DNA of 64,000 bases from Candidatus Omnitrophica bacterium UBA6215 (GTDB lineage: Bacteria; Omnitrophota; Gorgyraeia; Pluralincolimonadales; Pluralincolimonadaceae), in contig DISH01000003.1 in the NCBI GenBank assembly GCA_002421665.1, positions 39,291 through 103,290 of the forward strand, read 5' to 3'. The position numbers and the translations under genes are program-made. The notes below the pieces were generated by a model. The model made no database searches and was not told the DNA's origin. It was given only the letters and a program-made list of their open reading frames with translations. Below are positions 35,139-50,644 of this stretch, in pieces; the stretch's first letter is position 1, and every line of letters starts with the position of its first letter.

Positions 35139-35251
35139 AATTAATGCGGCTCCAATGGATTGAAATGCCGGTCATTTTAATGGCTGGTTTTTTCAATTAT
35201 ACAAAAAATCCTGCCTTTATGTCAAAGGTATTAATAGCATAAGAATAATGC

Positions 35252-35279: not shown

Positions 35280-35314
35280 TTAATCCGTAGCAACTAAAAG
35301 AGTAGCGATTGTTT

Positions 35315-35354
35315 ACCGCAACGGTTGATGATCACTGGCCTTTGCGGTTTTTTT
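35315..35354 (+). terminator. Terminator-like hairpin plus U-tract inside the cspA 5' leader. This is a possible attenuator or thermosensor element.
   Basis: ACCGCAA / TTGCGGT 7-bp stem with a 19-nt loop, followed by TTTTTTT. It is located between promoter P1 and the cspA RBS. Confidence 0.35.
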
Positions 35355-35404
35355 GTGCTCTCTGATCGTTTGCTATAATCCACAAGGAAAGGAGGCACAA
35401 ATTA

Positions 35405-35605
35405 ATGGCCAGAGGCAAGGTGAAATGGTTCAGCGACCAGAAAGGTTACGGATTCATTACCCCTGAGAACGGCAAGGACGTTTTCGTCCATCACAGCGCC
35501 ATCAAGGGTGAAGGTTATAAATCTTTGACCGAGGGACAGGAAGTCGAGTTCGATATCGAGAAGGGTCCCAAGGGTGAACAGGCGACCAACGTGGTTAAGC
35601 TCTAA
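35405..35605 (+). CDS. cspA: Cold-shock protein, CspA family.
   Basis: 66 aa with RNP1 'KGYGFI' and RNP2 'VFVHHS' motifs. It is preceded by an AAGGAGG RBS. Confidence 0.9.
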
Positions 35606-35626
35606 TTAAAAATAAACCGTCATGAC

Positions 35627-35659
35627 GGCCCGGTCCGAAAAGACCGGGCCTTGTTTTTT
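35627..35659 (+). terminator. Rho-independent terminator downstream of cspA.
   Basis: GGCCCGGTC-cgaaaa-GACCGGGCC perfect 9-bp GC-rich stem, followed by TTGTTTTTT. Confidence 0.7.
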
Positions 35660-35686
35660 ATACGGCAAAAGTGTAAAATACGGGCC

Positions 35687-36211
35687 ATGGCAAAATTCAA
35701 GGTAAAGAAGAAGACGCTTGTTTATGACGGCAGGATAGTCAGGCTCGTTGTCAGCGACGGCATCATTAGAGGAAGGCCCGCCCGCTGGGAAGTAGTCCAC
35801 CATATCGGTTCTGTCGGCATAGTCCCTTTTCTTCCCGGGGACAGGGTTGTCCTTGTCGAACAATTCCGCTATGCCGCAGGGGAGAGGCTGCTTGAGATAC
35901 CCGCCGGTACCCTCCATAAAGGCGAAGCGCCGCTTGCAGCCGCCAGGAGGGAGATACAGGAGGAGACAGGCTACGCCGCCGGAAAATTCGAGAAACTTAA
36001 CATATTCTATCCTTCTCCCGGGGTGACCGACGAATTCGTCGTGATATACAAAGCTACCGGCCTCAAGCCGTCCAGACTTCCGGCTGATTTCGATGAGGAT
36101 ATAAAAGTCAGGGTGGTAAAAATATCGGATGCCCTGAAATACGTCAGGCAGGGGAAGATAAAGGATGCCAAGACGATAATCGCGCTGTTGCTTACCTCCG
36201 GCAAGGCATGA
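35687..36211 (+). CDS. NUDIX hydrolase (ADP-ribose pyrophosphatase-like).
   Basis: Nudix box 'GTLHKGEAPLAAARREIQEETGY' (Gx5Ex7REUxEExGU). The start is chosen at 'MAKFK' after the cspA terminator. Confidence 0.8.
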   Translation: MAKFKVKKKTLVYDGRIVRLVVSDGIIRGRPARWEVVHHIGSVGIVPFLPGDRVVLVEQFRYAAGERLLEIPAGTLHKGEAPLAAARREIQEETGYAAGKFEKLNIFYPSPGVTDEFVVIYKATGLKPSRLPADFDEDIKVRVVKISDALKYVRQGKIKDAKTIIALLLTSGKA

Positions 36212-36585
36212 AGAAACAGCTTGATGTTATAGATATACTTGAAAGCGTGACCGATAAAGACCCACGCTATAAGGTCGACGCCTATTTGTTCGTCCTCAAC
36301 GGCTTGAACCACACGGTCTCCAGGCTCGAGAAGCCCCGCCATGTGAACGGCCAGGAACTTTCCGAAGGGCTGCGTATCTATGCGATAGACCAATACGGCC
36401 CGCTTGCCTTAACGGTCCTTGAGAGCTGGGGCCTGGAGAAGACATCGGACTTCGGCAATATAGTCTTTAACCTTATCGGCGTGAAGTTGCTGTCAAAGAC
36501 CGATAATGATTCGATAGATGATTTCAGCGATGTCTTCGATTTTAAGAAGGCCCTCGCCAGGACGGTGGATTATAAGCTTGAGTAA
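36208..36585 (+). CDS. Hypothetical protein (125 aa, acidic C-terminus).
   Basis: ORF with good codon usage, translationally coupled to the Nudix gene. No motif recognised. Confidence 0.4.
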   Translation: MKKQLDVIDILESVTDKDPRYKVDAYLFVLNGLNHTVSRLEKPRHVNGQELSEGLRIYAIDQYGPLALTVLESWGLEKTSDFGNIVFNLIGVKLLSKTDNDSIDDFSDVFDFKKALARTVDYKLE

Positions 36586-36618
36586 CAAAAAGTACGTGAA
36601 AAAAATTTAAGATTTTAC

Positions 36619-36650
36619 TTGACAACATAACAGTTATTATATATACTGTT
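36619..36650 (+). promoter_or_regulatory. Putative sigma70 promoter of marR (TTGACA, 17-nt spacer, TATACT) overlapped by an inverted repeat AACAGT-N10-ACTGTT. The repeat is a candidate MarR operator.
   Basis: Consensus -35 at 36619-36624 and -10 at 36642-36647. A perfect 6-bp inverted repeat lies at 36629-36634 / 36645-36650, inside an AT-rich intergenic region. Confidence 0.4.
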
Positions 36651-36682
36651 AATATATTAACAATAATAATAGGAGAAGACCC

Positions 36683-37138
36683 ATGGCGACAGATATCGAT
36701 AGACTTAATAATGACACAGTTATTAAGATCCTGCGGATCTCGGAAGCATTGGTAAAGACCGCGGATAGGTTTTTCAGTAAATACGGGGTTACTACGACCC
36801 AATATGATGTCCTAGTTATAGTTAATTATTCTGAAAGCAGAATAACTCAGAGCGAGCTTGGAGAGCGCCGTGTAGTTTCGCGCTCAAACATAACCGGGAT
36901 AGTCGACAGACTTGAGAAATTAGGTCTTATAAAAAGAGAATCCGATACGGGCGACCGGAGAATAAAACATCTTGTTGTTACAAAAAAAGGAAAAGATATT
37001 ATTGAAAAAGTCGAAGAAAAATATTTCGATAACCTAAAGCAGATCCTTTGGTTTCTTGATGAAAAGGATAAAGCCGGGATCTTAGAAATAATTGGAAAAA
37101 TAGAAAAGAGCTTGAGGAGAGCCGAAGATATATTATAG
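36683..37138 (+). CDS. MarR-family transcriptional regulator.
   Basis: 151 aa with a winged helix: 'TTTQYDVLVIVNYSESRITQSELGERRVVSRSNITGIVDRLEKLGLIKRESDTGDRRIKHLVVTKKG'. Confidence 0.8.
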   Translation: MATDIDRLNNDTVIKILRISEALVKTADRFFSKYGVTTTQYDVLVIVNYSESRITQSELGERRVVSRSNITGIVDRLEKLGLIKRESDTGDRRIKHLVVTKKGKDIIEKVEEKYFDNLKQILWFLDEKDKAGILEIIGKIEKSLRRAEDIL

Positions 37139-37199
37139 CATTTTTGGAGTTATAAAATATTCGCCGTTAATTTGGCTTATATCAATTTGGTAAAGAAAA

Positions 37200-37946
37200 A
37201 TGAAAAATTCTATTATTCAAAAGAGACTATTTGCAAGCGACGGTATCGAGATAGCCGTTGAACATTTCAAGGATGGGCATGATTCGGTTGTTGTTATCTG
37301 TCCCGGTTTTTTCAACAGCAAGAAGAATTCGGTAATACGCAGGGCGATAGATATTGTCGGGGACTCGCACGATGTTATAATATTCGATTTCCGCGGTCAC
37401 GGAGAGAGCGGTGGCAAATTTACCTGGACGGCGAAGGAACCGCTGGATCTCAAGGCTGTCCTTGATTACGCGGCCGGTTGCGGTTACAAGAAAATCGGAC
37501 TTATGGGATTTTCCCTTGGTGCCGCGGTTTCCGTAATCGTAGCTCCGGAAAGGCCGGAAATAAAGAGCATGGTCCTGATAAGCGCCCCTTACAGTTTTTG
37601 GGACATCAATTTTAACTTCTGGCAGCCGGAGATGTTCTCAGACCTTAAGGCAAATATGGAATGCAGTTGGGAAGGCAAAGGAGCAAAGATGGACCATGTT
37701 TTCATGGAAAAGAACAAGCCCATAGATAGAATTTCGGCGATAAAGGGCGCCGCGATACTTCTTATACACGGCGCGAAAGACTGGGTGATCAAGGATTATC
37801 ATTCGAAAAAGCTCTTCAATTCCGCTGCCGTATATGAGAAGAGACTGGAGATCTTTAACGACGGGCTCCACGCCGAGAGACTTATCGAGCAATACCCCGA
37901 TAGGATGAAGGACCTTGTTTCCGGCTGGTTCAGGGATACCCTATAA
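37200..37946 (+). CDS. Alpha/beta-fold hydrolase (dienelactone hydrolase / S9-like).
   Basis: GxSxG nucleophile elbow 'GFSLGAAV'. The 'HGAKD' region suggests a catalytic His/Asp. Confidence 0.7.
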   Translation: MKNSIIQKRLFASDGIEIAVEHFKDGHDSVVVICPGFFNSKKNSVIRRAIDIVGDSHDVIIFDFRGHGESGGKFTWTAKEPLDLKAVLDYAAGCGYKKIGLMGFSLGAAVSVIVAPERPEIKSMVLISAPYSFWDINFNFWQPEMFSDLKANMECSWEGKGAKMDHVFMEKNKPIDRISAIKGAAILLIHGAKDWVIKDYHSKKLFNSAAVYEKRLEIFNDGLHAERLIEQYPDRMKDLVSGWFRDTL

Positions 37947-37960
37947 TAAGGAGAACGGTT

Positions 37961-38698
37961 ATGAAATGGTTATTTATGTCATTGACACAATTGGCCGCGT
38001 CAGTAACTATGTACCTGATAGGTACTGTGTTCTTCGGGGTAGCCCTTATCCCGGGGGTAGCTATCTTTTTCAGCGCGCTGGAACATTCCCAGGGCCTTCC
38101 CGTTTTAGCCAGGTATGCCGTGCTCGGCCTTTCGCTCGCGGGAGGTTATTTCCTCTTCGGACTTACGCTCATATTCCTGGTAGGCATGGTTCGCATGGTG
38201 CTTCGCATACGCCTGAAGGAGGGCAATCACCCGATCTTCTCGGCGGAAGCCTTCAAGTGGGCATTTGTAAGCGCCCTATACCTGCTGGTCAATTTTACGT
38301 TCATAGATTTTATCCTGCTTACGCCGTTCTCTAACATATTTTTCAGGATGCTTGGCGTAAAACTCGGCAAGAACGTCCAGATCAATTCCAAGTTCATCTT
38401 CGACGCTACACTGCTCGAGATCGGGGACAATACGGTCGTAGGCGGCGGCGCAATAATCATCGGCCATATTGTAGAGCGCGGCACCTTGAAACTCAGGAAG
38501 GTCAGGATAGGCAAGAACGTTACCATAGGCTCGCATTCAACCGTGATGCCGGGCTGCGAAATAGGCGATAACGCCATAATAGGCGCGAGCGCCGTATTGC
38601 GCAAGGGAACCAAAGTTGAACCCAGGGACATCTATTATGGTATACCGGCCGAATCGGTAAAGAACAGACATAAAGGAGAAAGAGATGCCCAGGCCTGA
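37961..38698 (+). CDS. Membrane-anchored hexapeptide-repeat (left-handed beta-helix) acyltransferase.
   Basis: About 4 N-terminal TM helices followed by LbH repeats ('IGDNTVVGGGAIIIGH...IGKNVTIGSHSTVMPGCEIGDNAIIGASAVL'). Confidence 0.6.
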   Translation: MKWLFMSLTQLAASVTMYLIGTVFFGVALIPGVAIFFSALEHSQGLPVLARYAVLGLSLAGGYFLFGLTLIFLVGMVRMVLRIRLKEGNHPIFSAEAFKWAFVSALYLLVNFTFIDFILLTPFSNIFFRMLGVKLGKNVQINSKFIFDATLLEIGDNTVVGGGAIIIGHIVERGTLKLRKVRIGKNVTIGSHSTVMPGCEIGDNAIIGASAVLRKGTKVEPRDIYYGIPAESVKNRHKGERDAQA

Positions 38699-41312
38699 TT
38701 TCGATAATTTTTCCATACATGAGCTGATGGAATCCATAAACAAACGGTGGTTCTCTAAAACCGCTTTGCAGATAAAGACGAGAGAAGGCTGGAACAGGCT
38801 TTCCTATGTTCCGCTGGGAGAACGGGCGGTTGATATATCTTCGAGTCTTCTTAAGCTTGGAATGGAAAAGGGAGACCGCGCCGCGGTCCTGTCGGAATCA
38901 AGGCCGGAATGGGGTGCCGCGCTTTTTGGAATAATATCCTGCGGCGGTATCGTTGTACCTATGGATGTCAAACTCAGCGAGAAGGAGATGGCTTTCATCC
39001 TCAAGGACAGCGGGGCCAGGTTCATCTTTGTCTCGGAGAAGTATCTTCCCGTGGTCGACAGTATAAAAGCAGCCCTCCCGGAACTAAGGCATATTTTTGC
39101 CATTGATGATACCGACAGGCAGGACCTTATAAAGACTAAAGAACTCAAGATGAGACCGGGTGAAAAGAAATACCTCCCCCTTACCATGGATGACACCGCC
39201 GTCATAGTTTATACTTCCGGTACTACGGGAGTGGCGAAGGGTGTCGAGATAACTTATAAGAACCTGATATTCCAGGCCCGCGAGCTCAACAGGCTTGTCC
39301 GTTATAACGAGTCCGACAATTTCCTTTCAATGCTTCCGCTTAACCATATGCTTGAGTTGACCGGAGGGTTCCTGTCACCGCTATATGTTGGTGCTACCGT
39401 GACGTATTGCGACAGCCTTAAACCGTCGAATATCATGGCCATGATGGCCGAGACGCGTACGACAGCCATGATAACGGTCCCTCTCATACTTAAAATGTTC
39501 CACGACGGCATAATGAAGAAGGCGCAGTCCCGGCCGTTCGTTAGCAGGAAGGCGTTCTTTACCTGCCTGCATCTGTGCAGGTTCCTGCTCAGGTTCAGGG
39601 TAAAGGCCGGCAGGTTATTCTTCGGCCGAATACACAGGCAATTCGGCGGCCGGTTGAGATGTTTTGTTTCGGGAGGCGCCCCCCTTGATACCACCGTAGA
39701 GATGGATTTTAACGCCATGGGTTTTACCATATTGCAGGGTTACGGCCTTACCGAGACCTCGCCTGTCATCGCAGTGAACACTTTTGAGGAATTGAAGTAC
39801 GGCTCTGTAGGCAAGCCCCTGCCGGGAGTCGAGGTTAAGCTCATAAGGCCTGATGGCACCTCGGGGGACGAAGGCGAGATAGTCACGCGCGGCGATCATG
39901 TCATGAAGGGGTATTTCAGGAACCCCGAGAAAACCGCCGAAGTAATCAAGGACGGATGGCTCTATACCGGGGATATCGGTAAATTTGATAAAGACGGTTT
40001 TCTTTACATAACCGGTCGCATCAGGAACCTTATTGTCCTTGGCGGCGGAAAGAAAGTCTTTCCCGAGGAGATAGAGGAAGTGATGTCGGAGAGCCCTTAT
40101 ATTAAGGAAATATGCGTCCTCGGCAGGAAAGCGCAATCCGGGCTTAAGGCCGGCACCGAGGAAGTATTTGCCGTGATCGTCCCGAACCTAGAGATGTTCA
40201 AGGCGGGCGCAAAAGGCGACGAAGAAGCAGCAAGAAAAAAGATAAGCGAAGAGATCCTGCGGCTTGGCTGCAACCTCGCCGAATACAAGAAGATAGCAGG
40301 TTTTATGCTCTATTTCGATGAGCTGCCTAAGACCTCGACAAGGAAGGTCAAGAGGGCGGAGGTGGGGAAGATGCTGGAAGAGACCGGCGATAACCCTAAT
40401 CCCGTTAGCGCTATCGAGGCCCAATTAGGGAAAAGGATGGATATCTCCGGCAATCTTTCCTCGCCCCTGTCCGATATAGGTATAGATTCCATGGAAAAAG
40501 TCGAGATAGTTTGTGCGTTAGAGAGAGAGTATAATTGCACTATACCGGAGGAAGAATGGCAAAAGGCAATTTCGTTAAGTGACCTTATCCGGCTGGCTTT
40601 TGCAAACAAGGGTTTAAAAGGCAGAAATACCGGTGATGGCAATCCTGCGGCAGAAGCAAGGACAGTACGTATCCGGTCGAGGATTTTTCTGCCGAGCAGG
40701 CTACTTTTTGCATTGATCCTCAAAATATTTTTTAGGACCTACCTTAAGGTCAGGGTTAAGGGAAAGGAAAATTTGCCTGCAAAGGGTCCGTTTATACTAG
40801 CGGCCAACCATTCGAGCCATCTTGACCAGCCTCTTTTATTCAACTTGTTTTCGATGGCAAGAATCAAGGACGTGTATTCTCCCGCGGCGGCGGATTATTT
40901 TTATCGCAATATAATCGTGCGCATGTTTGTTGCTATATCATTGAACGCTTTCCCGTTCGAAAGAGAAGGTAATTTTACGAAGGGCTTGAAGATCTGCAAA
41001 GAATTGATTAATATGGACAAATCGTTAATACTATTTCCCGAAGGAACGAGATCCCTTGACGGTAAAATCGGTAATTTTAGGCCGGGAGTAGGCTTGCTTT
41101 CGATCGAATCCGGCGTTCCAGTTATTCCAGTTTATATTAAAGGCGCCCACCAGGCCCTTAGCAAGGGGCGCTTATTTATTAAGCCGGGAACCGTTGAAAT
41201 GATTATTGGTTCTCCCGTTAGTCCTGAGGGGATAGAAGATAACTATAATGGCTATAGGGTATTTGCCGGGACGCTAAAAACGAAGGTAGAAGAATTAAGC
41301 CGGGAGCATTAA
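38685..41312 (+). CDS. Tri-domain fatty acyl-AMP ligase / acyl carrier protein / lysophospholipid (PlsC-type) acyltransferase fusion. It is ElbD-like but lacks a reductase domain.
   Basis: AMP-binding motif 'YTSGTTGVAKGV'. ACP phosphopantetheine site 'LSDIGIDSMEKVEIV'. LPLAT motifs 'AANHSSHLD' (HX4D) and 'FPEGTRS'. Confidence 0.75.
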   Translation: MPRPDFDNFSIHELMESINKRWFSKTALQIKTREGWNRLSYVPLGERAVDISSSLLKLGMEKGDRAAVLSESRPEWGAALFGIISCGGIVVPMDVKLSEKEMAFILKDSGARFIFVSEKYLPVVDSIKAALPELRHIFAIDDTDRQDLIKTKELKMRPGEKKYLPLTMDDTAVIVYTSGTTGVAKGVEITYKNLIFQARELNRLVRYNESDNFLSMLPLNHMLELTGGFLSPLYVGATVTYCDSLKPSNIMAMMAETRTTAMITVPLILKMFHDGIMKKAQSRPFVSRKAFFTCLHLCRFLLRFRVKAGRLFFGRIHRQFGGRLRCFVSGGAPLDTTVEMDFNAMGFTILQGYGLTETSPVIAVNTFEELKYGSVGKPLPGVEVKLIRPDGTSGDEGEIVTRGDHVMKGYFRNPEKTAEVIKDGWLYTGDIGKFDKDGFLYITGRIRNLIVLGGGKKVFPEEIEEVMSESPYIKEICVLGRKAQSGLKAGTEEVFAVIVPNLEMFKAGAKGDEEAARKKISEEILRLGCNLAEYKKIAGFMLYFDELPKTSTRKVKRAEVGKMLEETGDNPNPVSAIEAQLGKRMDISGNLSSPLSDIGIDSMEKVEIVCALEREYNCTIPEEEWQKAISLSDLIRLAFANKGLKGRNTGDGNPAAEARTVRIRSRIFLPSRLLFALILKIFFRTYLKVRVKGKENLPAKGPFILAANHSSHLDQPLLFNLFSMARIKDVYSPAAADYFYRNIIVRMFVAISLNAFPFEREGNFTKGLKICKELINMDKSLILFPEGTRSLDGKIGNFRPGVGLLSIESGVPVIPVYIKGAHQALSKGRLFIKPGTVEMIIGSPVSPEGIEDNYNGYRVFAGTLKTKVEELSREH

Positions 41313-41328
41313 AAAGAGGAAAAATAAA

Positions 41329-41946
41329 ATGCCGCTTCCTTCAGTTTATGATTTTAAACCGCGCTTTCAAAGATTATTGCATCCGGTCTCGGATTGGCTG
41401 GCAAAAAAGCGCGTAACCGCAAATATGGTTACATATTCCGCCTTATTTGGTTCAATGTTAGTTGGAGCAGGAATAGCGATATTCGGGCCGCGTTCAATCC
41501 GCGTCCTTTTGGTACTGCCTGTTTGGTTATTGATCAGGATGGCTTTGAACGCGATTGACGGGATGATGGCACGCGAATATAAGATGGTCTCGAATTTCGG
41601 GTTTGTATTAAATGAAGCAGGGGACGTATTATCCGATGTCTTTTTGTATCTTCCGCTTGCTTTCTTGGCCAAAGATGCATTATTACCCGTTTATGTTTTT
41701 TGTATCGGAGCAATATTGACTGAATTCTGCGGGATTATTCCGAAGACGCTCGGTTTTGGCAGGCGCTACGACGGGCCGATGGGAAAGAGCGACAGGGCTT
41801 TTTGGATAGGCTTACTTTCTATCGTCGCATCGGTATACCCCATGACAATAATATGGTGGAAATATGTATTTATTGTTATGGCATTGATGGAGATAGTTAC
41901 ATGCATAAAGAGAATAAATAACGGGTTGAAGGAGGAGAGCAGATGA
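41329..41946 (+). CDS. CDP-alcohol phosphatidyltransferase family protein.
   Basis: Signature 'DGMMAREYKMVSNFGFVLNEAGDVLSD' (D-G-x2-A-R-x8-G-x3-D-x3-D). Multi-TM. Confidence 0.7.
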   Translation: MPLPSVYDFKPRFQRLLHPVSDWLAKKRVTANMVTYSALFGSMLVGAGIAIFGPRSIRVLLVLPVWLLIRMALNAIDGMMAREYKMVSNFGFVLNEAGDVLSDVFLYLPLAFLAKDALLPVYVFCIGAILTEFCGIIPKTLGFGRRYDGPMGKSDRAFWIGLLSIVASVYPMTIIWWKYVFIVMALMEIVTCIKRINNGLKEESR

Positions 41947-42893
41947 TCGACTGGATCGCCGGAGTCTCACCCACAGGAAAAGGCATATTACTTGTCTTGG
42001 CTTTTCTTGCGTTAATAAGCTTTTTGGTATGGATCCTTGCCATGTCAAAAAGAGACAGCAATGAACTGGTTGCCAGGACAAGATCGTGGTGGGTTATGGC
42101 GGCGATTTTTATGATAGCAGTTGTTTCCGGGAACAGGCACTTTTCCGTAATGTTCTTCTGCTTTTTAAGTTTGTGGGCTACAAAAGAATATCTTTCGGTT
42201 GTAGATATCCCAATCTGGCACAGACCGGTCTTGATCTGGAGCTATGTTATAATAGTGATGCAGTATTATTGGATCGCTATTGATTGGTATGGCATGTTTC
42301 TGGTATTCATTCCCATATTCGGGTTCCTGTTTATTTCAACAAGGGTAATGTTGACCAACGAGCCGGATTATTTTCTGGGTTCATCGGCAAAGATATTATG
42401 GGGTCTTCTCGCTTTTGGACTTGGGCTTAGTCACCTTGGCTACCTTATTAATATACCCGGTTACCATGGTTTGCGAATTGACGGAAGGTCTTTACTGCTT
42501 TTTCTTGTCGTGACGACGGAATTTAACGATGTTGCCCAATATTTTTGGGGCAAACTTTTCGGAAAGCATAAGATCCTCCCGGTTATCAGTCCGAAAAAGA
42601 CCTGGGAAGGGTTTATCGGCGGGGTCGTTACCGCCATAGCTGTTTGCTTTCTTTTTAAGTTTTTGACCCCCTTTAAAGCAGTTTATGAGATAGTTTTTGT
42701 GTCCTTAGCCATTTCGATCAGCGGGTTTTTTGGGGATGTCGTGATGTCGGCTGTAAAGAGAGATATGAGCGTGAAGGATTTTGGAACCGCAATACCAGGG
42801 CACGGGGGTATTTTAGACCGGCTGGATTCAATATCCTTTACAGCCCCGATATTCTTCCATATTATACGTTATTGGTATTGGCCGTCTTGCTGA
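41943..42893 (+). CDS. CTP-dependent lipid cytidylyltransferase of the CdsA/CarS family (phosphatidate cytidylyltransferase-like).
   Basis: 'SPKKTWEGFIGGV' matches the CdsA signature (SPxKTxEG). Multi-TM. It overlaps the preceding gene by 4 nt. Confidence 0.7.
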   Translation: MIDWIAGVSPTGKGILLVLAFLALISFLVWILAMSKRDSNELVARTRSWWVMAAIFMIAVVSGNRHFSVMFFCFLSLWATKEYLSVVDIPIWHRPVLIWSYVIIVMQYYWIAIDWYGMFLVFIPIFGFLFISTRVMLTNEPDYFLGSSAKILWGLLAFGLGLSHLGYLINIPGYHGLRIDGRSLLLFLVVTTEFNDVAQYFWGKLFGKHKILPVISPKKTWEGFIGGVVTAIAVCFLFKFLTPFKAVYEIVFVSLAISISGFFGDVVMSAVKRDMSVKDFGTAIPGHGGILDRLDSISFTAPIFFHIIRYWYWPSC

Positions 42894-42913
42894 GACGGCC
42901 GCGGAGAAAGAAG

Positions 42914-44395
42914 ATGATTAAAGATGAGTTTTTGTTGTCTAGTGTAGGGGACAGGGAGGCCGCATGCGCGGTCGCGCGGAAGTCGGCGATAAATATCCCG
43001 GCTTATAGGGAGTATCTAAGGAGAAATCAGTTTTCCGGCAAGATATCGCGTTCAAATTTTGAAGAGCTCCCCCTTACGGATAAAGAAAATTACCTTATGA
43101 AAGCCCCGTATTTTTCATTATTGCCGCCGGAGAATTTGGATGATGTACACTTTGTGTTTAAAAGCTCGGGTTCGTCAGGTAAGTCTTTCTATTGGCCTCA
43201 ACTAAAGCAGCAATACAAATTATTTGACCTGCTGTTTGAAGATACCCTTAGCAAGAATTTTTCAATCCGCAAGAAAAGGACCGCGATAATCGTCGGGTTA
43301 TCATTGGGGAGCTGGATCGGCGGCGACCTTATTTCGTGGGCCGCGAAGAACGTTGCGTTGCGTTCGAATTACTCCCTTACTGTCTTCAGTCCCGGGAACC
43401 AGCATGAAGAGATACTCGAGATAATTAACGGAATAAACAGGAAGGTTGACCAGATAATACTTTTTGTATGTCCTTCTACGATTGGACATCTTGCCTTGCT
43501 TGCGGAAGAGAAAAATTTTTCTGGCATATTTAACAAGTTGCGATTTCTGGTTATTGGAGAGCCATTCAGCGAAAATTTTAGATTACGTCTTCGGGCAAAG
43601 TGCAAAGTAAAGCCTCCGGAAGTTGTCCTGACGTCCGTATACGGGTCTGCCGATACGGGGATAATAGGGATCGAATCAAATGCTGTCGCATTCTTCAGGG
43701 AGCTTCTATCGAGATACGGGCAATTGCGCAGGTATTACGGTTTTGAGAATTCTTTGCCTAATTTTTTCAACCTCTCCGTAAAAGAGGCTTATATTGAAAT
43801 GGTAAAAGGAGAGCTGGTTTTTACGGCTTGGCAAGGGTTACCGCTTATGCGGTATAATCTGCACGATAACGGCAGCCTCATCGATTGGAACACCGTAAAA
43901 ACGGCGTTAAAAGACATTAATCTCGACGGAGAGTCCGAGAAATTAAAGAACCATATAATCAAGGATAGATCAAATCCTATTGTTATCGCCGTAGGCGGAC
44001 GAAGCGACGGCACTATATATTTATGCGGTACCAACATTTCAGAATCAATGCTTAGCAATGCCATAAACGACAAATCGTTGCAAAAGACCGTAACGGGGCA
44101 TTTTTATGTAAGCGTCTTGGAACGTAATGGCAGGCAGCAGTTGAAATGGGAAATAGAGCTTAAGCCCGGGATTCGTCCTGATAAAAAGACCGAAAGCGTT
44201 ATCTATGCTAAGCTGATTGAATTGCTGGGAAAGCTCCAGCCGGAGTTTATGGCCGATTACAATAGCATATATTCAAAATGGGACGATAACGAATCTGCGA
44301 GGATATTCCAATTTAAATTTTATCCTTGGCCGCAGTTATCAAGAAGACCTGATTCAGCGAAACACAGGATTATTGCATTGACAGAGGATAAATAA
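42914..44395 (+). CDS. PaaK-like / GH3-like adenylate-forming enzyme (phenylacetate-CoA ligase / F390 synthetase family), divergent.
   Basis: 'PLTDKENYL' and the P-loop-like 'FKSSGSSGKSFYW' are present. Start chosen at 'MIKDEF', after the CdsA-like stop. Confidence 0.6.
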   Translation: MIKDEFLLSSVGDREAACAVARKSAINIPAYREYLRRNQFSGKISRSNFEELPLTDKENYLMKAPYFSLLPPENLDDVHFVFKSSGSSGKSFYWPQLKQQYKLFDLLFEDTLSKNFSIRKKRTAIIVGLSLGSWIGGDLISWAAKNVALRSNYSLTVFSPGNQHEEILEIINGINRKVDQIILFVCPSTIGHLALLAEEKNFSGIFNKLRFLVIGEPFSENFRLRLRAKCKVKPPEVVLTSVYGSADTGIIGIESNAVAFFRELLSRYGQLRRYYGFENSLPNFFNLSVKEAYIEMVKGELVFTAWQGLPLMRYNLHDNGSLIDWNTVKTALKDINLDGESEKLKNHIIKDRSNPIVIAVGGRSDGTIYLCGTNISESMLSNAINDKSLQKTVTGHFYVSVLERNGRQQLKWEIELKPGIRPDKKTESVIYAKLIELLGKLQPEFMADYNSIYSKWDDNESARIFQFKFYPWPQLSRRPDSAKHRIIALTEDK

Positions 44396-44396
44396 T

Positions 44397-44993
44397 ATGA
44401 AAAGCAAAGGAATCGGGATATTTGAAAGGGTTTTTTCGTCGCGAGTTTCCTTAATCATATCGTTTTTATGGGGCTTCGCGGAGGCGACCTTATTTTTTAT
44501 TATTCCCGATGTTTTTTTAGGAGCGGTAGCTTTATTTTCGCCAATGTGTGGAATATTGTGCTGTATTATGAGTATCCTGGGGGCTATGCTTGGCGGAGGC
44601 CTTATGTATCTTTTATCTTGCAGGATCCCTCAAACTATGCTTGCCTTGCTAACAAAAGTTCCGGGAATTACAGATTCTATGATAACGCAGGTGGGTATCA
44701 ATTACAAGATGTATGGCCTTAAGTCCATTTTTTTGGCCCCGTGGGCCGGAGTTCCTTACAAGATTTACGCCGTTCAAGCCGGTATTCATGGTATAGACCG
44801 TACGGCTTTTATTTTGGCCACTATTCCGGCCCGTTTAGAGCGGTTTATTTTGGTTATTGTGGTCATGATGTTTCTGGGTTATCGATTTAGAAGGTCTGTT
44901 TTGCGCAGGCCCGGATATTGGATGACCGCGTACGCTGTTTTCTGGATAGCGTGCTACGTGGCATATGCAATTTATTTAAATGGCAGGACTTAA
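44397..44993 (+). CDS. Hypothetical integral membrane protein (5-6 TM) embedded in the lipid cluster.
   Basis: Hydrophobic helices throughout. It starts 1 nt after the preceding stop. Confidence 0.4.
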   Translation: MKSKGIGIFERVFSSRVSLIISFLWGFAEATLFFIIPDVFLGAVALFSPMCGILCCIMSILGAMLGGGLMYLLSCRIPQTMLALLTKVPGITDSMITQVGINYKMYGLKSIFLAPWAGVPYKIYAVQAGIHGIDRTAFILATIPARLERFILVIVVMMFLGYRFRRSVLRRPGYWMTAYAVFWIACYVAYAIYLNGRT

Positions 44994-45010
44994 TTGAATA
45001 TTGGAAATCA

Positions 45011-46324
45011 ATGCGTTCACTAAACTTTTCTGAATCGGTTATGTTAGGCTTACGCTTTTATCCTGCAATACGCAGCATAAGCCGTATGCCATTTGCTTCC
45101 AGGGATTCCATCGAAGGATATCAGCTGTCCAGGATTAAAAAACTTGTTACATTTGCTTACGATAATGTGCCATTTTACAGGAAGAAATATGATGAAGCGG
45201 GTATCCGTCCCGGAGACATAAGGACATTTCATGATTTTAAACGCTTACCGACGGTGACAAAAAAGGATATTATAGAAAATTATCCGCATAACATACTTGC
45301 TTCCGGTACCGATCTAAACCGTTGCATAATATCCAGGAGTTCAGGTTCTTCCGGAGCCATTGTAAATGTTGTCTATGGAACAGGGGCCCTTATCGAATAC
45401 ATATTGGCAGGTTTTAGGATTTATTCTATGGTGATGGATTACAAGCCTTGGCATAAACAGGTTTATATCTATACTTCTCCGTACCCGGTTAACGGGGTAT
45501 TTGGCGCTTATCGTTTATATTTTATACCGACAGTCAACAAGGTTAATGATACGATAGCTGAGCTAAGGAGGATCAGGCCGGATCTTTTGGTTTGTTATCC
45601 GTCCCACTTGCGTCAATTGAGCCACAGCATTTCTCGCGAAGACCTAAAGTTGATAAAACCTCTTGCTATATCAGTGAATTCTGAAATGTCAACTCAGGGG
45701 GAAAGGGATGAACTCGCCGGTTTTTTTGGGTGCGGGGTTTATGATGAATATTCAACCGAGGAATTGACGAGGGTTGCTTCGCAGTGTAAGGCTAAAAATT
45801 ATCATATATTTGAGGATATTAATTATATTGAAATATTGAATGATCGGGGGGCGGATGCAAAAGATGGGGAAGTCGGAGAGATAGTAGGGACAAATCTGCA
45901 TAATTTTACCATGCCCTTTATAAGATACAAGCAGTCCGATATGGCATCCGTATCTTCTGGGGCCTGTTCATGCGGAAGAAACTTTAAGTTATTAAACGGG
46001 TTAAAGGGCAGAAAAAACGATGAATTTATTCTGCCCGGAGGAAAAACCCTTTCTTCCGGGTTTCTGCTGGATGCTTCTTATAATTTGATCCTTGAATTTG
46101 AGAATGCAATAAAAGATTATTGTATTATTCAAGAATCGAGGAATGATATAGTAATGGAGATTATCGCAGGGGATAGCTATTCGGAAGAAAAAAGGGTGCG
46201 GATGGAAGACGCTCTCAGTAAGATAATAGGCGAAGGAGTCGCCGTTAAGGTTGCAAGGGTAGAAGAGCTTTACAAGACAAAATCAGGCAAGCAAAATCCA
46301 ATAATTTCTAAAGTCTCCAGATAA
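45011..46324 (+). CDS. PaaK-like adenylate-forming enzyme (phenylacetate-CoA ligase / CapK / F390 synthetase family).
   Basis: 'FHDFKRLPTVTKKDIIENYP' and 'SRSSGSSGAIVNV' are PaaK-family N-domain motifs. Start chosen at 'MRSLNF'. Confidence 0.7.
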   Translation: MRSLNFSESVMLGLRFYPAIRSISRMPFASRDSIEGYQLSRIKKLVTFAYDNVPFYRKKYDEAGIRPGDIRTFHDFKRLPTVTKKDIIENYPHNILASGTDLNRCIISRSSGSSGAIVNVVYGTGALIEYILAGFRIYSMVMDYKPWHKQVYIYTSPYPVNGVFGAYRLYFIPTVNKVNDTIAELRRIRPDLLVCYPSHLRQLSHSISREDLKLIKPLAISVNSEMSTQGERDELAGFFGCGVYDEYSTEELTRVASQCKAKNYHIFEDINYIEILNDRGADAKDGEVGEIVGTNLHNFTMPFIRYKQSDMASVSSGACSCGRNFKLLNGLKGRKNDEFILPGGKTLSSGFLLDASYNLILEFENAIKDYCIIQESRNDIVMEIIAGDSYSEEKRVRMEDALSKIIGEGVAVKVARVEELYKTKSGKQNPIISKVSR

Positions 46325-46357
46325 CGATATATCCGAATTAGCAGAAAGAAATCGTTC

Positions 46358-49300
46358 ATGAAAACTTGCGGTATCTGCGTCGGGGCATCCAACCTGACGT
46401 CGGTGGAGTTGCACAAGGACAAGGAAGGCCTGCGTGTCGGCAGGGTTATTAGTTTGCCGCACGAGGGAAATATATTCGGCTCGCTGGAACAGGCCGTGCG
46501 CAGGGCGCAGGAGGATGGCTACGGGAGTATCGCCGTGACCGGGCGCAAGGTAGGCGCCTCAATCTCGCTGCCGAGATTATCGGAACCGGAAGCGGTAGAG
46601 GAGGCCCTCAAGTTCCTGAACGCCGGTAACAGGAAAAGATACGATGCGGTAGTGAGCGTCGGCGCGGAACTTTTCATAGCTTATCTGCTGGACAGGGAGG
46701 GCAATATCTCCGGGGTCAGGACGCTTAACAAATGCGCGTCCGGGACCGGGGAATTCTTCATGCAGCAGCTCAGGAGGATGAATATATCCCTGGACGATGT
46801 CGTCAAGCTCGCCTCGTCAGAAAAATCATACAGGCTTTCGAGCAGGTGCTCGGTCTTTTGTAAAAGCGACTGTACCCACGCCCTTAACAAGGGCCAGGAT
46901 ATAAGCGAGATTCTTTCCGGTCTCTGCGAAATGATGTCCAGAAAGGTCATGGAACTTCTGGTCAACCTCCCAAAAGAGAATGTCATGCTCATAGGAGGGG
47001 TTGCCCTTAACCCCCGTGTGGTTAATTTTCTCAGGAAGGACATCCGTTCCGTACATGTCCCTAAAGAAGCCGCTTATTTCGAGGCGCTTGGCGCAGCATT
47101 GTGGGCGATGGAACATAATACCGATACGACGAACACGAAACTGCTGCAGGACAAACGCCATCCGTCGAGATTCTCGAACCTGCCTCCGCTTAAGTCCGCT
47201 CTCCCGCTGGTTGATTTCAAGGGCGCGTGGGAAAAGAAGGAATTTTCCGAAGGAGACGTATGCATAATCGGATTGGATGTGGGGTCAACGACGACGAAAG
47301 CCGTCTTGATGAGGGAGCGCGACGATGCCGTTATCGATTCTATATATCTCAGGACCAACGGCAACCCAGTTGAGGCTTCCAGGAATTGTTACAGGGCCCT
47401 GCAGAAAAATCTTAAGAAGGACGTAAAGATAACAGGCATAGGAGTCACCGGTTCAGGCAGGCATATAGCTGCCCTGCACGCCATGACGGACGGCGTGATA
47501 AATGAGATCATCGCCCACGCGCGCGCCGCGGCGTATTTCGACCCCGAGGTTGATACGATATTCGAGATAGGCGGCCAGGACGCGAAATATACGCATATAG
47601 AGAATATGGTAGCCTGCGATTACGCGATGAACGAGGCTTGTTCGGCCGGTACGGGCTCATTCCTTGAGGAGTCATGCAAAGAGACCCTCGGGGTGGAATT
47701 AAAAGACATTGAACCTCAGGCGATGAAAGGCGAGAACCCGCCCAACTTCAATGACCAGTGCGCCGCTTTTATAAGCAGCGATATCAAGACCGCCTCATAC
47801 GAGGGGCTCAAGAAAGAGGATATCGTCGCCGGGCTCGTATATTCCATCTGCATGAACTACAGTAACCGCGTAAAAGGAAACAGGCTTGTAGGCGACAAAG
47901 TGTTGATGCAAGGCGGGGTCTGCTACAACAAGGCGGTTCCCTTTGCTATGGCTTCTCTCTTGGGGAAAAAGATAGTGGTTCCTCCGGAGCCCGGCCTCAT
48001 GGGGGCCTTCGGCGTAGCGCTTGAGGTCAAGGACAAGATAAAGAACGGCCTGCTCAAAAGAGGCGAATACCGGCTTGCCGATCTTATAGGGAGAGAAGTT
48101 AAATACTGTGACAGCTTCAGGTGTAAGGGCGGCGCCGAGAAATGCGATCGGGGGTGCAGTATCCTGCGCATAGAGATAGAGGGTAAGATATATCTTTTCG
48201 GAGGTTCATGCAACAGGTATTACAATATCAACCATTCGGTAGCGGTAGAGGACGGCTTGCTAAATCTTGTCAAAGTGCGCCAAGAACAGCTTTTTAACGT
48301 GGGAGGGGCGCCGGTACCGCGTCCGGGCGCCAAGAGCGTAGGTATCAGCAAATCGTTCCTGTCGCATACTTTCTTCCCGCTGTACCACGATTTCTTCTCG
48401 GCCCTTGGGATGAAGGTCGTGGTTTCCGATACCGTTACGGATTACGGCATTCAGCACAAAAGGGCGGCTTTTTGTTACCCGGCCGAAATAGCCCACGGAA
48501 TGTTCCACAACCTCATCGAGAAAGAGCTTGATTATATATTCCTGCCCCAGGTGCTTGAGATAAAATCCAAGAGGGCGCCGCAGTCAAGGAAAGAACAGCA
48601 GTCCACGTGCGTCATCCTGCAAAGCGAGCCGTATTACCTGCGCGATACGTTCAAGAAAGCGAATAAAGGAAAGCTACTGATACCGGTGGTTGATTTTTCA
48701 AATGGTATACGGAAGGCTCAGGATACTTTTGTCGAGATGGCCGTAAAAATGAGTTTCAACGGCGGGGACGCGGCAACGGCTTACAAGGCCGCGTGCAGGA
48801 AACAGGAGGATTTTACCTCCAGGATGAAACAATACGGCAGGGGATGTCTCGAAGAACTCAGAAAGGACCCGTCAAGGACAGCGGTAGTCCTCCTGGGCAG
48901 GCCGTATAACAGTTTCGCGGCCGAAGCGAACATGGCGATACCGGACAAGTTTTCTTCCCGCGGGGTTACCATAATACCGTTTGACTGCCTTCCTTATGAA
49001 GGCGAATCCGATGACAGGAACATGTATTGGGCGAGCGGCCAGATGATACTTAAGGCCGCGAGGTTCGTAAAGAAGCACCCGCAGCTATACGCCGTTTTCG
49101 TTACTAATTTCAGTTGCGGCCCGGATTCCTTTATCGTGGGACAGGTAAGGGATATGATGGACGAAAAACCAATGCTTATCCTCGAGATAGACAGCCATAC
49201 CGCGGATGCCGGGGTCAATACCAGGATAGAAGCGTTCCTCGATATTGTGGAAAGGTCGAGGCGGGTGGCAGGCATCCCGCAAAAAGCCGCGACGCATTTC

Positions 49301-50644
49301 ATTCCGGCGCGCTGCATAAGCCACAAGAAGAGGTTATGGATAATCTCCTCCGAAGGGGAACGGCTTAAGATAAACGATAAGAAGGTCAAATTATTGATAC
49401 CTCCTATGGGCAAGATGGGCCCGGAAGCGCTCGCGGCGGTCTTTAAGACCGCGGGGATAAACGCGGTGCCGCTCGAGCCGTCGGACGGTGTATCCCTTAA
49501 GCACGGCAGGTCGAATACGACCTGTAAGGAATGCCTGCCGCTCATACTCAGCACGGGGAGCCTTATGAAGTACCTTGAGCGGGACAAGAGCGGGGACGTC
49601 CTTGTGTATTTCATGCCTTCTACCGGAGGCAATTGCAGGTTCGGACAGTATAGCGTATTCTTCAATAATCTAATCAGGAAGAAGCGCATCAGGAACCTCG
49701 CCGTATATTCAATGGATACCCAGAACAGCTACCTGGGCATGGGGAACGCTTTTAATATACTGGTCCTGAAGACCGCGCTTATATACGACGCGATGTATGA
49801 CATAAAGAACGCCTTGAAAGCGCTGGCGAAGGACCGTCAGGAGGCCCTTGGAATATTCGAGGAAGAATGGCATTCCATACTCGCGTGCATAGCCGGCGGG
49901 GGCAAAGGGCTTTACCGGGTGCTCGGCAAGTCCATGGACAGGCTCAGGAATGTGCCTTTAAAGAGGGCGTTCGCCGAGGCGAATAAGGTAGCCATAATGG
50001 GCGAGATATACGTCAGGCGCGATGATTATTGCTGCAATCCGCTTATCGACAGGCTCGCCCAGAAAGAGATAGTGGCCAAGACCGCGCCTATGCTCGAATG
50101 GTTCTATTATGTCGACTACCTCGTCAAGAACAACCTTGTCGAGGCGGATCTGGGAGTATCGGGCAGGGTCGAGTTCTTCATAAAGACGTTTTTGCAGAGC
50201 AGTTATGAGAGGAAGATAAAGGGCATATTGGAGCGTTCCGGGCTTTATGAGAACGAAGAGATAAACATCAGAAAGATCATGGATACCGGAAAAAAGTTTT
50301 TTGACGAGCAGCTTACCGGCGAGTCGATAGTAGTCGTGGGTTCTGCGATGAACGAGATAGCCGAGCATGTCTCAGGGGTTATAAACGTGGGCCCGTTCGC
50401 GTGCCTACCTACCAGGATAATAGAATCCATACTAAACGGTAATATGAATATGGCTTCCAAGAGGAGGTTGTCCGGGAAGGATCTTGAGCACCTTAAGGGG
50501 ACGGAGGACCTTCCTTTTCTTTCGGTCGAGATTGACGGGGCGCCCTTCCCGCCGCTGATCGAGGCCAAGATAGAGGCCTTTTGCCTGCAGAGCAAGCGCC
50601 TTCATGCCAAAATGTCTTATCTTAATTTACGCCATAAAAAATAA
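46358..50644 (+). CDS. 1428-aa fusion of two tandem BadF/BadG/BcrA/HgdC-type activase ATPase domains with a 2-hydroxyacyl-CoA dehydratase (HgdAB/DUF2229)-like C-terminal region. It is a candidate fused plasmalogen-synthase-like (PlsA/PlsR family) enzyme.
   Basis: Two actin-fold activase signatures ('CGICVGASNLTS' and 'CIIGLDVGSTTTKAVL...IFEIGGQDAKY'). A Cys cluster 'CDSFRCKGGAEKCDRGC' is present. The long C-terminal region has HAD-component-like blocks ('LEIDSHTADAGVNTRIEAF'). Confidence 0.7.
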   Translation: MKTCGICVGASNLTSVELHKDKEGLRVGRVISLPHEGNIFGSLEQAVRRAQEDGYGSIAVTGRKVGASISLPRLSEPEAVEEALKFLNAGNRKRYDAVVSVGAELFIAYLLDREGNISGVRTLNKCASGTGEFFMQQLRRMNISLDDVVKLASSEKSYRLSSRCSVFCKSDCTHALNKGQDISEILSGLCEMMSRKVMELLVNLPKENVMLIGGVALNPRVVNFLRKDIRSVHVPKEAAYFEALGAALWAMEHNTDTTNTKLLQDKRHPSRFSNLPPLKSALPLVDFKGAWEKKEFSEGDVCIIGLDVGSTTTKAVLMRERDDAVIDSIYLRTNGNPVEASRNCYRALQKNLKKDVKITGIGVTGSGRHIAALHAMTDGVINEIIAHARAAAYFDPEVDTIFEIGGQDAKYTHIENMVACDYAMNEACSAGTGSFLEESCKETLGVELKDIEPQAMKGENPPNFNDQCAAFISSDIKTASYEGLKKEDIVAGLVYSICMNYSNRVKGNRLVGDKVLMQGGVCYNKAVPFAMASLLGKKIVVPPEPGLMGAFGVALEVKDKIKNGLLKRGEYRLADLIGREVKYCDSFRCKGGAEKCDRGCSILRIEIEGKIYLFGGSCNRYYNINHSVAVEDGLLNLVKVRQEQLFNVGGAPVPRPGAKSVGISKSFLSHTFFPLYHDFFSALGMKVVVSDTVTDYGIQHKRAAFCYPAEIAHGMFHNLIEKELDYIFLPQVLEIKSKRAPQSRKEQQSTCVILQSEPYYLRDTFKKANKGKLLIPVVDFSNGIRKAQDTFVEMAVKMSFNGGDAATAYKAACRKQEDFTSRMKQYGRGCLEELRKDPSRTAVVLLGRPYNSFAAEANMAIPDKFSSRGVTIIPFDCLPYEGESDDRNMYWASGQMILKAARFVKKHPQLYAVFVTNFSCGPDSFIVGQVRDMMDEKPMLILEIDSHTADAGVNTRIEAFLDIVERSRRVAGIPQKAATHFIPARCISHKKRLWIISSEGERLKINDKKVKLLIPPMGKMGPEALAAVFKTAGINAVPLEPSDGVSLKHGRSNTTCKECLPLILSTGSLMKYLERDKSGDVLVYFMPSTGGNCRFGQYSVFFNNLIRKKRIRNLAVYSMDTQNSYLGMGNAFNILVLKTALIYDAMYDIKNALKALAKDRQEALGIFEEEWHSILACIAGGGKGLYRVLGKSMDRLRNVPLKRAFAEANKVAIMGEIYVRRDDYCCNPLIDRLAQKEIVAKTAPMLEWFYYVDYLVKNNLVEADLGVSGRVEFFIKTFLQSSYERKIKGILERSGLYENEEINIRKIMDTGKKFFDEQLTGESIVVVGSAMNEIAEHVSGVINVGPFACLPTRIIESILNGNMNMASKRRLSGKDLEHLKGTEDLPFLSVEIDGAPFPPLIEAKIEAFCLQSKRLHAKMSYLNLRHKK

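Follow-up and report, generated by a model that had tools for sequence, protein, structure and literature searches.

The gene characterized here is an open reading frame (ORF) at positions 38685-41312 on the forward strand of the 64-kb stretch of DNA that was analysed (the window). It starts with ATG and comprises 875 codons without an internal stop, and its 875-aa product joins an adenylating ligase, a carrier protein and an acyltransferase in one chain. According to the names of the closest matches, the organism is a Candidatus Omnitrophota bacterium. The gene and its parts are listed below with the evidence on which each was recognised.

38685..41312, forward strand: tri-domain ORF (ligase, carrier protein and acyltransferase); ORF reading, Pfam and identical copies on 19 public contigs.
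38685..40379, forward strand: adenylating ligase assigned to the ACSL/FACL (acyl-CoA-synthetase) type, residues 1-565, with motifs A3, A5, A7, A8 and A10; Pfam, similarity to FadD13 and an invariant core.
39510..39650, forward strand: helical insertion of 47 residues (276-322) within the ligase; split matches in the Protein Data Bank (PDB) and NCBIfam, modelled helices and colinearity with the long homologue P0130.
40380..40619, forward strand: short linker and carrier domain, residues 566-645, with helix I shortened and the codon of Ser602 at 40488-40490; Pfam, alignment with AcpP and invariant D601 and S602.
40620..41309, forward strand: PlsC/AGPAT-type acyltransferase, residues 646-875, with HX4D at 40809-40826, FPEGTR at 41034-41051, FPFER and VIPVYIKG; Pfam, PDB entry 5KYM, invariant residues and model helices.

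In Pfam searches the protein matched AMP-binding (residues 23-411, E 2.2e-79), AMP-binding_C (residues 462-554), PP-binding (residues 589-636, 25.6 bits against a cut-off of 20.8, E 1.5e-5) and Acyltransferase PF01553 (residues 688-819, E 6.2e-24). When 30 tri-domain homologues (44-85% identity to the window protein) were aligned, residues D601, S602, H709, D714, F784, P785, E786, G787 and R789 proved invariant, as did the ligase core motifs A3, A5, A7 and A8 and the A10 lysine K554. The initial annotation had described these three domains, with their named motifs, in a single chain; Pfam, alignments with solved structures and the 30-homologue alignment agree with it, and the phosphopantetheinylation-serine context and the HX4D dyad on which it hinged are both present and invariant in the 30 homologues. 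The tri-domain observation is confirmed, far beyond chance. With AMP-binding, PP-binding and PF01553 on one chain and the DS, HX4D and FPEGTR motifs in place, the protein belongs to the reductase-less ElbD-like family. The mean predicted local distance difference test score (pLDDT) of the AlphaFold model was 79 overall. Ratios of nonsynonymous to synonymous substitution (dN/dS) between the window and a related genome (L003) were 0.083 for the ligase, 0.094 for the carrier core and 0.128 for the acyltransferase, and purifying selection acts on all three parts.

Nineteen public contigs (ENA, JGI and Logan; at least three independent assemblies) encode the identical 875-aa protein with unchanged gene order, and therefore the gene is not an assembly artefact. 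A fused frame produced by chimeric assembly, or by a frameshift joining two genes, was considered since the junction falls on a strain-level breakpoint, described below, and a public scaffold of 1.46 kb (L089, positions 2-1460) has the ligase in one ORF and the carrier-acyltransferase in another, 36 nt away. In this scaffold, however, the frame of the carrier is open upstream and encodes a full helix I (NEDEIADRLKQMLCEE…), so that the scaffold itself looks frameshifted; L003, 85% identical, has the same fused layout and the same short linker; and fusions of about 900 aa are the rule in dozens of other lineages. The chimera was rejected on the 19 exact copies, and the probability left to an artefact of any kind is negligible. 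The apparent natural split form, represented by the 294-aa carrier-acyltransferase P0121 of L089, was also discarded, being probably a frameshift in a fused gene.

The ligase motifs are YTSGTTGVAKG for A3 (residues 176-186), YGLTE for A5 (353-357) and TGD for A7 (428-430), and the A10 lysine, K554, lies within PKTSTRKVKR. The domain had been labelled a fatty acyl-AMP ligase (FAAL), an assignment that was rejected. Its top relatives in NCBIfam and PDB are acyl-CoA synthetases (PRK06187, FadD13 with 166 bits, MenE and 4-coumarate ligases), while among solved structures the FAAL 3PBK reached 92 bits against the 166 bits of FadD13. The insertion specific to FAALs is located after A5; residues 324-483 of the protein are colinear with residues 286-448 of FadD13, and the stretch from A5 to A8 is without room for an insertion of this kind. 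A stand-alone 569-aa ligase of a sister strain, which has no carrier and is 97.7% identical to residues 1-560, also opposes the label. On these comparisons the domain is assigned at family level to the acyl-CoA-synthetase type and not to the FAALs. The only insertion in the ligase is that of residues 276-322, at which all PDB and NCBIfam ligase matches are split in two (at about 275/323); it contains modelled helices at 285-302 and 309-319 and is also found in proteins of ElbD architecture. Despite the ligase type, the fusion makes the hand-over of the acyl group to the built-in carrier the natural functional reading.

The carrier domain contains the motif IGIDSME (residues 598-604), in which Ser602 is the predicted phosphopantetheine serine. 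Escherichia coli AcpP aligned with this part with E 1.4e-6, placing Ser602 on its Ser36. As for the four-helix fold of carriers, the motif and helices II-IV are present and conserved, and helix I is shortened.

In the acyltransferase domain the motifs are ANHSSHLD (residues 707-714, with H709-x4-D714), FPFER (756-760), LFPEGTRS (783-790, with FPEGTR at 784-789) and VIPVYIKG (813-820). PlsC of Thermotoga maritima (5KYM) aligned with the C-terminal part with E 2e-20 and with HX4D and FPEGTRS in register, so that the dyad and the FPEGTR block of the PlsC/LPLAT superfamily are both in place and invariant. Two helices at the N-terminus of the domain (654-667 and 669-685 in the AlphaFold model) are amphipathic and not membrane-spanning, as judged from hydropathy; PlsC sits on the membrane through such a helix pair.

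To place the protein among its relatives, the carrier-acyltransferase half (310 aa) was searched against 1.84 billion representative proteins, with 179 matches at E ≤ 1e-30. Three classes were obtained: proteins of about 800-900 aa with the region at their C-terminus (tri-domain), a few short carrier-acyltransferases, and proteins of 1390-1517 aa, which stand among the best matches. All four long proteins that were checked by Pfam (P0130, P0137, P0146 and P0149) carry NAD_binding_4, Sterile, AMP-binding, PP-binding and Acyltransferase domains. The published architecture of ElbD is an N-terminal FAR-like domain followed by an acyl-CoA synthetase, an acyl carrier protein (ACP) and an AGPAT-like acyltransferase (PMC9131029). 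Residues 24-873 of the window protein are colinear with residues 572-1437 of P0130 (33% identity, E 2e-159), with the insertion 276-322 included. The N-terminal NAD_binding_4 and Sterile reductase of ElbD gave no Pfam match in the protein, and no FAR-type reductase was found in the 64-kb window by tblastn with three FAR regions (best E 0.018); the window thus encodes a reductase neither within the protein nor as a split gene, and a separate reductase gene, as in the split elbD of Acidobacteria and Poribacteria, was rejected. The end-to-end alignment and the lack of a FAR reductase in the window uphold the description as ElbD minus its reductase, a likeness based on ElbD-architecture proteins and published descriptions and not on the sequence of Myxococcus xanthus ElbD.

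The protein is a member of an already noticed, uncharacterised family of reductase-less ElbD homologues, and its architecture is not a new observation. As cited in PMC9131029, Lorenzen et al. (2014) found ElbD-like homologues in other phyla, nearly all of them without the FAR domain, and ElbD homologues have been reported in 93 of 267 Omnitrophota metagenome-assembled genomes (MAGs) (PMC11868695). The reductase-less architecture (795-1027 aa) is widespread among the matches listed, in which the Omnitrophota (dozens of clusters), Acidobacteriota (Pyrinomonadaceae), Bacteroidota including Prevotella, Dependentiae/TM6, TA06, Verrucomicrobiota, Wallbacteria, a "Deltaproteobacteria" MAG and a Nitrosomonas MAG are represented. 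In public annotation these proteins are called just "AMP-binding protein" or "long-chain acyl-CoA synthetase". Two relatives showed variant layouts or motifs: P0126 (1115 aa) has a ligase, a carrier and two acyltransferase stretches, and P0130 (1443 aa) has a degenerate ligase A3 (TSGPYGNPRV) and PKTPALATDR in the region of the A10 lysine, a hint that the ligase may be altered in some of the four-domain relatives.

The gene lies within a tightly packed co-directional cluster (36683-50644), whose other elements are as follows.

36619..36647, forward strand: promoter-like site TTGACA-17-TATACT upstream of the MarR gene, the best found and the probable start of the operon; consensus match only.
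36683..37138, forward strand: MarR-family regulator, first gene of the cluster; Pfam MarR_2 with E 3.6e-16, position kept in relatives.
37200..37946, forward strand: alpha/beta-hydrolase of the lipase, lysophospholipase or thioesterase type; Pfam Hydrolase_4 and Abhydrolase_1, conserved partner.
37961..38698, forward strand: membrane-anchored hexapeptide-repeat (LbH) acyltransferase with about three N-terminal membrane segments; Pfam Hexapep, NCBIfam and hydropathy.
41329..41946, forward strand: divergent CDP-alcohol phosphatidyltransferase-like integral membrane protein; NCBIfam, Pfam and motif reading.
41943..42893, forward strand: CdsA, phosphatidate cytidylyltransferase; Pfam CTP_transf_1 with E 1.7e-63.
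42914..44395, forward strand: distant PaaK-like adenylate-forming enzyme of 493 aa; NCBIfam PaaK with E 6e-5, start taken from public gene calls.
44397..44993, forward strand: integral membrane protein of 198 aa without family match; Pfam, NCBIfam and hydropathy.
45011..46324, forward strand: PaaK/CapK/F390-synthetase-like adenylate-forming ligase of 437 aa; NCBIfam DVU_1553 family with E 3e-40 and PaaK with E 1e-37, CapK_C in public gene calls.
46358..50644, forward strand: protein of 1428 aa with PlsA/Ger architecture (two BcrAD_BadFG ATPase domains and DUF2229), last gene of the cluster; Pfam, and TIGR00241 acyl-CoA dehydratase activase with E 2e-71.

The LbH gene, which overlaps the start of the tri-domain gene by 14 nt, matched the NCBIfam models for the Pls/PosA terminal domain (E 3.6e-28) and heptaprenylglyceryl-phosphate O-acetyltransferase (E 3e-17). 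It is the most constant partner of the ligase in Omnitrophota and may be the main one: among roughly a dozen loci, a sample rather than a census, it goes with the fused and the stand-alone ligase alike in nearly every case. The two PaaK/CapK/F390-synthetase-like enzymes and the membrane protein between them (42914-44395, 45011-46324 and 44397-44993) are part of a lipid operon; the alternative cassette described below has a GH3 adenylating ligase instead.

The gene that follows the tri-domain gene had been taken for a HAD-like protein that would supply any ether or vinyl-ether chemistry. This identity was rejected, as its Pfam and NCBIfam matches are solely of the CDP-alcohol-transferase type (archaetidylinositol-phosphate synthase model with E 8e-21, under the cut-off; Pfam 21 bits against a cut-off of 22), and the next gene is cdsA. 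Pfam and NCBIfam searches of the cluster genes gave no HAD protein in the operon, and the elb context (HAD-like ElbB, ElbC and the NAD-dependent epimerase-family ElbA and ElbE) was not found among the operon neighbours. The candidate for ether or vinyl-ether chemistry in the cluster is instead the product of 46358-50644: two BcrAD_BadFG domains and DUF2229 ("BBD") are the conserved core of Ger (glycerol ester reductase) and PlsA (PMC13159169; bioRxiv 10.64898/2026.06.23.733905), this core is present, and the protein is regarded as a candidate ester-to-ether reductase.

Similar associations were seen in other genomes. In L005, an Omnitrophota locus with a 47% identical homologue, the tri-domain gene is followed by CDP-alcohol-transferase-like, CdsA, diacylglycerol-kinase-like and PlsA-like genes, and in L020 (TA06) CDP-alcohol-transferase-like and CdsA genes adjoin it; this recurring partnership supports the feeding of phosphatidate as proposed below. 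As a separate observation (L005:6626-8488, L005:14382-16145 and L006:12636-14390), the tri-domain gene of other lineages is adjoined by genes for an MFS-acyltransferase fusion (LplT-like) and for a protein of 584-587 aa, which consists of a deoxynucleoside-kinase-like part and a diacylglycerol-kinase catalytic domain.

The right flank of the window (55253-61600) carries further lipid genes, encoding a cyclic-nucleotide-binding patatin phospholipase, an ETF-QO-like flavoprotein, a second ACSL-type ligase (598 aa, 33.5% identical to the ligase of the tri-domain protein) and a Hydrolase_4 lysophospholipase-like enzyme, and this group is syntenic in a relative (contig of P0011). Positions 5790-14746 and 18424-34800 represent ordinary housekeeping context. 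A pyrimidine cluster encodes an aspartate/ornithine carbamoyltransferase-family protein, a dihydroorotase-like amidohydrolase, the small and large subunits of carbamoyl-phosphate synthase and the Fe-S subunit of dihydroorotate dehydrogenase B. On the minus strand, a V/A-type ATPase subunit and an NADH dehydrogenase (complex I) operon were recognised.

The reading preferred here, to which a probability of roughly 0.55 is given, is that the protein is a soluble or peripheral membrane enzyme of the reductase-less ElbD family that would carry a free long-chain fatty acid into membrane lipid on one polypeptide and feed the co-encoded phospholipid genes. Direct evidence covers its domains, motifs, homology, purifying selection and gene context; which substrate and acceptor it uses, whether the in-line carrier takes part and whether an ether is formed are inferred. 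The ACSL-type ligase would form acyl-AMP from the free long-chain fatty acid, and the acyl group would then pass to the phosphopantetheine arm on Ser602. The PlsC-type domain, presumably held at the membrane by helices 654-667 and 669-685, would acylate glycerol-3-phosphate or 1-acyl-glycerol-3-phosphate, with H709 and D714 as the predicted catalytic pair and R760 and R789 probably binding the phosphate of the acceptor. The co-transcribed CdsA and the CDP-alcohol-transferase-like protein would use the resulting phosphatidate to build the head group, and the PlsA/Ger-like protein may finally convert the sn-1 ester into an ether or vinyl ether by reduction. The patatin phospholipase, the second ACSL ligase and the lysophospholipase-like hydrolase encoded in the window fit with the use of free or scavenged fatty acids.

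Several observations pull in the other direction. The linker and the start of helix I are about 23-27 residues shorter than in most homologues, with the same short form in P0001, the nearest full-length relative, and a similar gap in the more distant P0043; the AlphaFold model assigns residues 568-601 a pLDDT of about 30 and carrier helices II-IV one of 60-69, and P0001 has no precomputed PP-binding match. Since a 97.7% identical ligase exists in a sister strain without a fused carrier, the ligase may normally use CoA. The canonical CDP-alcohol phosphatidyltransferase motif is DxxDGxxARx8Gx3Dx3D, and the protein of 41329-41946 reads N74-xx-D77-G78-xxA-R82-x8-G91-x3-N95-x3-D99-x3-D103, with the first and third Asp of the signature replaced by Asn (N74 and N95) and with an extra Asp, D103; two homologues (77% and 36% identical) keep these Asn residues, and the replacement of two of the four signature Asp makes the head-group step uncertain. 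The PlsA/Ger-like protein was assigned from domain architecture and the published description, and not by comparison with the sequences of T. maritima Ger or Clostridium perfringens PlsA. The ligase and carrier activities of M. xanthus ElbD have been demonstrated in vitro, whereas the isolated protein gave no detectable acyltransferase activity (PMC9131029). Finally, the literature search retrieved no biochemistry for reductase-less ElbD homologues or for an AMP-binding/PP-binding/PlsC fusion, and a search on Omnitrophota lipids yielded nothing usable.

The features of the carrier bear on another explanation, in which the carrier is a vestige: like its stand-alone twin, which has no other option, the ligase would produce acyl-CoA for use by the acyltransferase, and the fusion would do no more than keep both enzymes together. 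The truncated helix I, the weak Pfam score, the low pLDDT, the acyl-CoA-synthetase type to which the ligase is assigned and the twin itself, in whose cassette no carrier gene was recognised, are in line with it. Nevertheless, the Asp-Ser of the attachment site is invariant in the 30 homologues, helices II-IV are modelled, every tri-domain and ElbD-architecture relative examined keeps the carrier, and the dN/dS of the carrier core stands at 0.094 at a synonymous divergence of about 1. Because purifying selection holds for all three parts, the shortened carrier is unlikely to be a dead remnant, and this explanation is considered improbable.

The main rival to phosphatidate formation by the tri-domain protein is a membrane repair of the Aas kind, in which it would re-acylate lysophospholipids (2-acyl-lyso-phosphatidylethanolamine or lyso-phosphatidylglycerol produced by phospholipases) with exogenous fatty acid. 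The chemistry would be that of E. coli Aas, and the protein partly matches Aas models; the operon contains an alpha/beta-hydrolase, with the patatin phospholipase and the lysophospholipase-like hydrolase nearby. In L005, L007 and L010 (Omnitrophota/Planctomycetales), moreover, an acyltransferase gene is found just upstream of the hydrolase, LbH and ligase genes, and in L005 it encodes an MFS transporter-acyltransferase fusion of the LplT kind. The operon in the window, however, has no LplT-like transporter, and its next genes, CdsA and the CDP-alcohol-transferase-like protein, work on phosphatidate and not on finished phospholipids. The match with the Aas model PRK08633 amounts to 239.7 bits, far under its cut-off of 1221 bits. 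In it, the ligase part corresponds to positions 895-1049 of 1147, so that the ligase is C-terminal in Aas and the reversed domain order proposed initially stands; with a different order and the carrier in line, the protein is no Aas orthologue. On balance, repair of this kind is judged rather unlikely.

A dedicated ether-lipid enzyme was also considered, which would acylate dihydroxyacetone phosphate in the manner of GNPAT, followed by an exchange with fatty alcohol of the alkyl-dihydroxyacetone-phosphate-synthase type. It is suggested by homology, as ElbD is needed for the alkyl ether lipids of Myxococcus (PMC9131029) and ElbD homologues serve as markers of ether lipids in metagenomes, the Omnitrophota MAGs mentioned above among them (PMC11868695). 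Against it, the window contains neither a reductase domain nor a separate FAR gene that could supply aldehyde or alcohol, the operon lacks HAD (ElbB), epimerase-family (ElbA/ElbE) and AGPS-like genes, and it carries a gene of Ger/PlsA architecture, a type acting on finished ester lipids. The probability of this explanation is very low.

Comparison with relatives at the DNA level indicated that the tri-domain gene spans the border of a strain-variable region, delimited as follows.

40363..40364, no strand: left breakpoint of the cassette, directly behind codon 560 (…KVKRAEV), where the ligase domain ends; DNA comparison with L001.
46342..46343, no strand: right breakpoint, 15 nt ahead of the PlsA/Ger-like ATG; from 46343 onward the DNA again matches L001.
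40364..46342, forward strand: cassette A, the carrier-acyltransferase half and five downstream genes; comparison with relatives, G+C content 0.43.

The DNA of L001/L002, the contigs that carry the stand-alone 569-aa ligase, is 99.35% identical to positions 30809-40363 of the window and 99.6% identical to positions 46343-48013, and the interval between them is unrelated. In L001/L002 it is occupied by an alternative cassette of three B12-binding radical-SAM enzymes, the GH3 ligase, which has a weak similarity to the lyso-ornithine-lipid synthetase OlsH (E 4.6e-12, under the cut-off), and three proteins without confident family (one of them with a weak GNAT match). A similar radical-SAM/GH3 cassette was found in a relative about 79% identical in the ligase; these intervals (L001:9556-17489 and L087:4865-13745) contain three to four B12-radical-SAM enzymes. 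In a further relative, whose ligase is about 78% identical, the site is empty, and a MazG gene and the remainder of the window's right flank come directly after the ligase. No repeats or att-like sites were found at the cassette ends; integrases and tRNAs were sought no further than the ORF list.

The G+C content of both cassettes is about 0.43-0.44 against 0.50-0.52 in the flanks, and within the tri-domain gene it changes from 0.51 in the ligase part to 0.45 in the carrier-acyltransferase part. Synonymous divergence between the window and L003 is 0.41 for the ligase versus 1.04-1.17 for the carrier and acyltransferase. Because of the sharp breakpoints and these differences in composition and divergence, the gene is read as a mosaic, in which a core ligase is joined in frame with the first gene of an accessory lipid cassette, a join accompanied by the shortening of linker and helix I. 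By the same comparisons, the MarR regulator, the hydrolase, the membrane LbH transferase and the ligase constitute the conserved core, and the carrier-acyltransferase half is accessory.

It is tentatively proposed, as a possibility given less than even odds, that the 3' end of the ligase gene acts as a socket for alternative lipid cassettes, which may be absent (empty site), of the radical-SAM/GH3 type, or composed of the carrier-acyltransferase with CdsA and head-group genes. On this view, strains that live together and share about 99% identity in the flanks would turn one and the same activated fatty acid into different membrane lipids, and in the window the in-frame join would have made an acyl-CoA synthetase into a self-contained phosphatidate-forming enzyme independent of CoA and free ACP. 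It would follow that reductase-less ElbD matches in metagenomes of anaerobes mark the assembly of ester lipids that feed Ger/PlsA and not an ether pathway of the ElbD type. This cassette polymorphism offers a natural comparison between strains, by which genes could be tied to lipids in enrichment cultures.

Three findings add to the initial annotation, none of them surprising as chemistry: the ligase is, from its similarities, of the CoA-synthetase type; the operon pairs a reductase-less ElbD homologue with a Ger/PlsA-type gene, two elements usually treated as alternative ether pathways; and a strain-variable lipid cassette begins with the carrier-acyltransferase half. The form found here in Omnitrophota, without a reductase and in one operon with CdsA and a Ger/PlsA-type gene, suggests that an ester phospholipid is made from free fatty acid and that ether bonds, if any, are introduced later by Ger/PlsA. 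If this is true, such ElbD matches in metagenomes should not be counted as an ElbD-type ether pathway. The family is also found in Dependentiae, Prevotella and Acidobacteriota, and a route from fatty acid to phosphatidate independent of CoA and ACP would be relevant to fatty-acid salvage in uncultured and host-associated bacteria.

Among known systems, FAALs (FadD32 and E. coli 3PBK) share with the protein the expected logic, in which acyl-AMP is passed to a phosphopantetheine arm rather than to free CoA; the ligase differs from them in being closer to the acyl-CoA synthetases and in lacking the insertion between A5 and A8. With the PlsC/AGPAT enzymes (5KYM) all catalytic blocks align and the N-terminal helix pair is present in the model, while in the window protein the acyltransferase is fused behind a ligase and a carrier and its acceptor is putative. 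E. coli Aas, often coupled or fused to LplT, likewise combines an adenylating fatty-acid ligase with a PlsC-type acyltransferase and brings free fatty acid into phospholipid without CoA; in Aas, however, the acyltransferase is N-terminal and free cellular ACP is used, whereas in the window protein it is C-terminal and the carrier is built in. Proteins with the architecture of M. xanthus ElbD (MXAN_1528; FAR, ligase, ACP and AGPAT-like acyltransferase) have a homologous and colinear ligase-carrier-acyltransferase part, with DS, HX4D and PEGTR and the insertion 276-322, as seen against P0130. The window protein differs from ElbD in the missing N-terminal reductase, with no split reductase gene in the window, and in its neighbours, which include no ElbA, ElbB, ElbC or ElbE types and comprise CdsA and the PlsA/Ger-like gene. 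The reductase-less ElbD-like homologues are the protein's own family, in which the order of AMP-binding, PP-binding and Acyltransferase domains is the same; within this family it is distinguished by the short linker and helix I that it shares with P0001, and nearly so with P0043, and by a carrier-acyltransferase half that in its lineage belongs to a strain-variable cassette.

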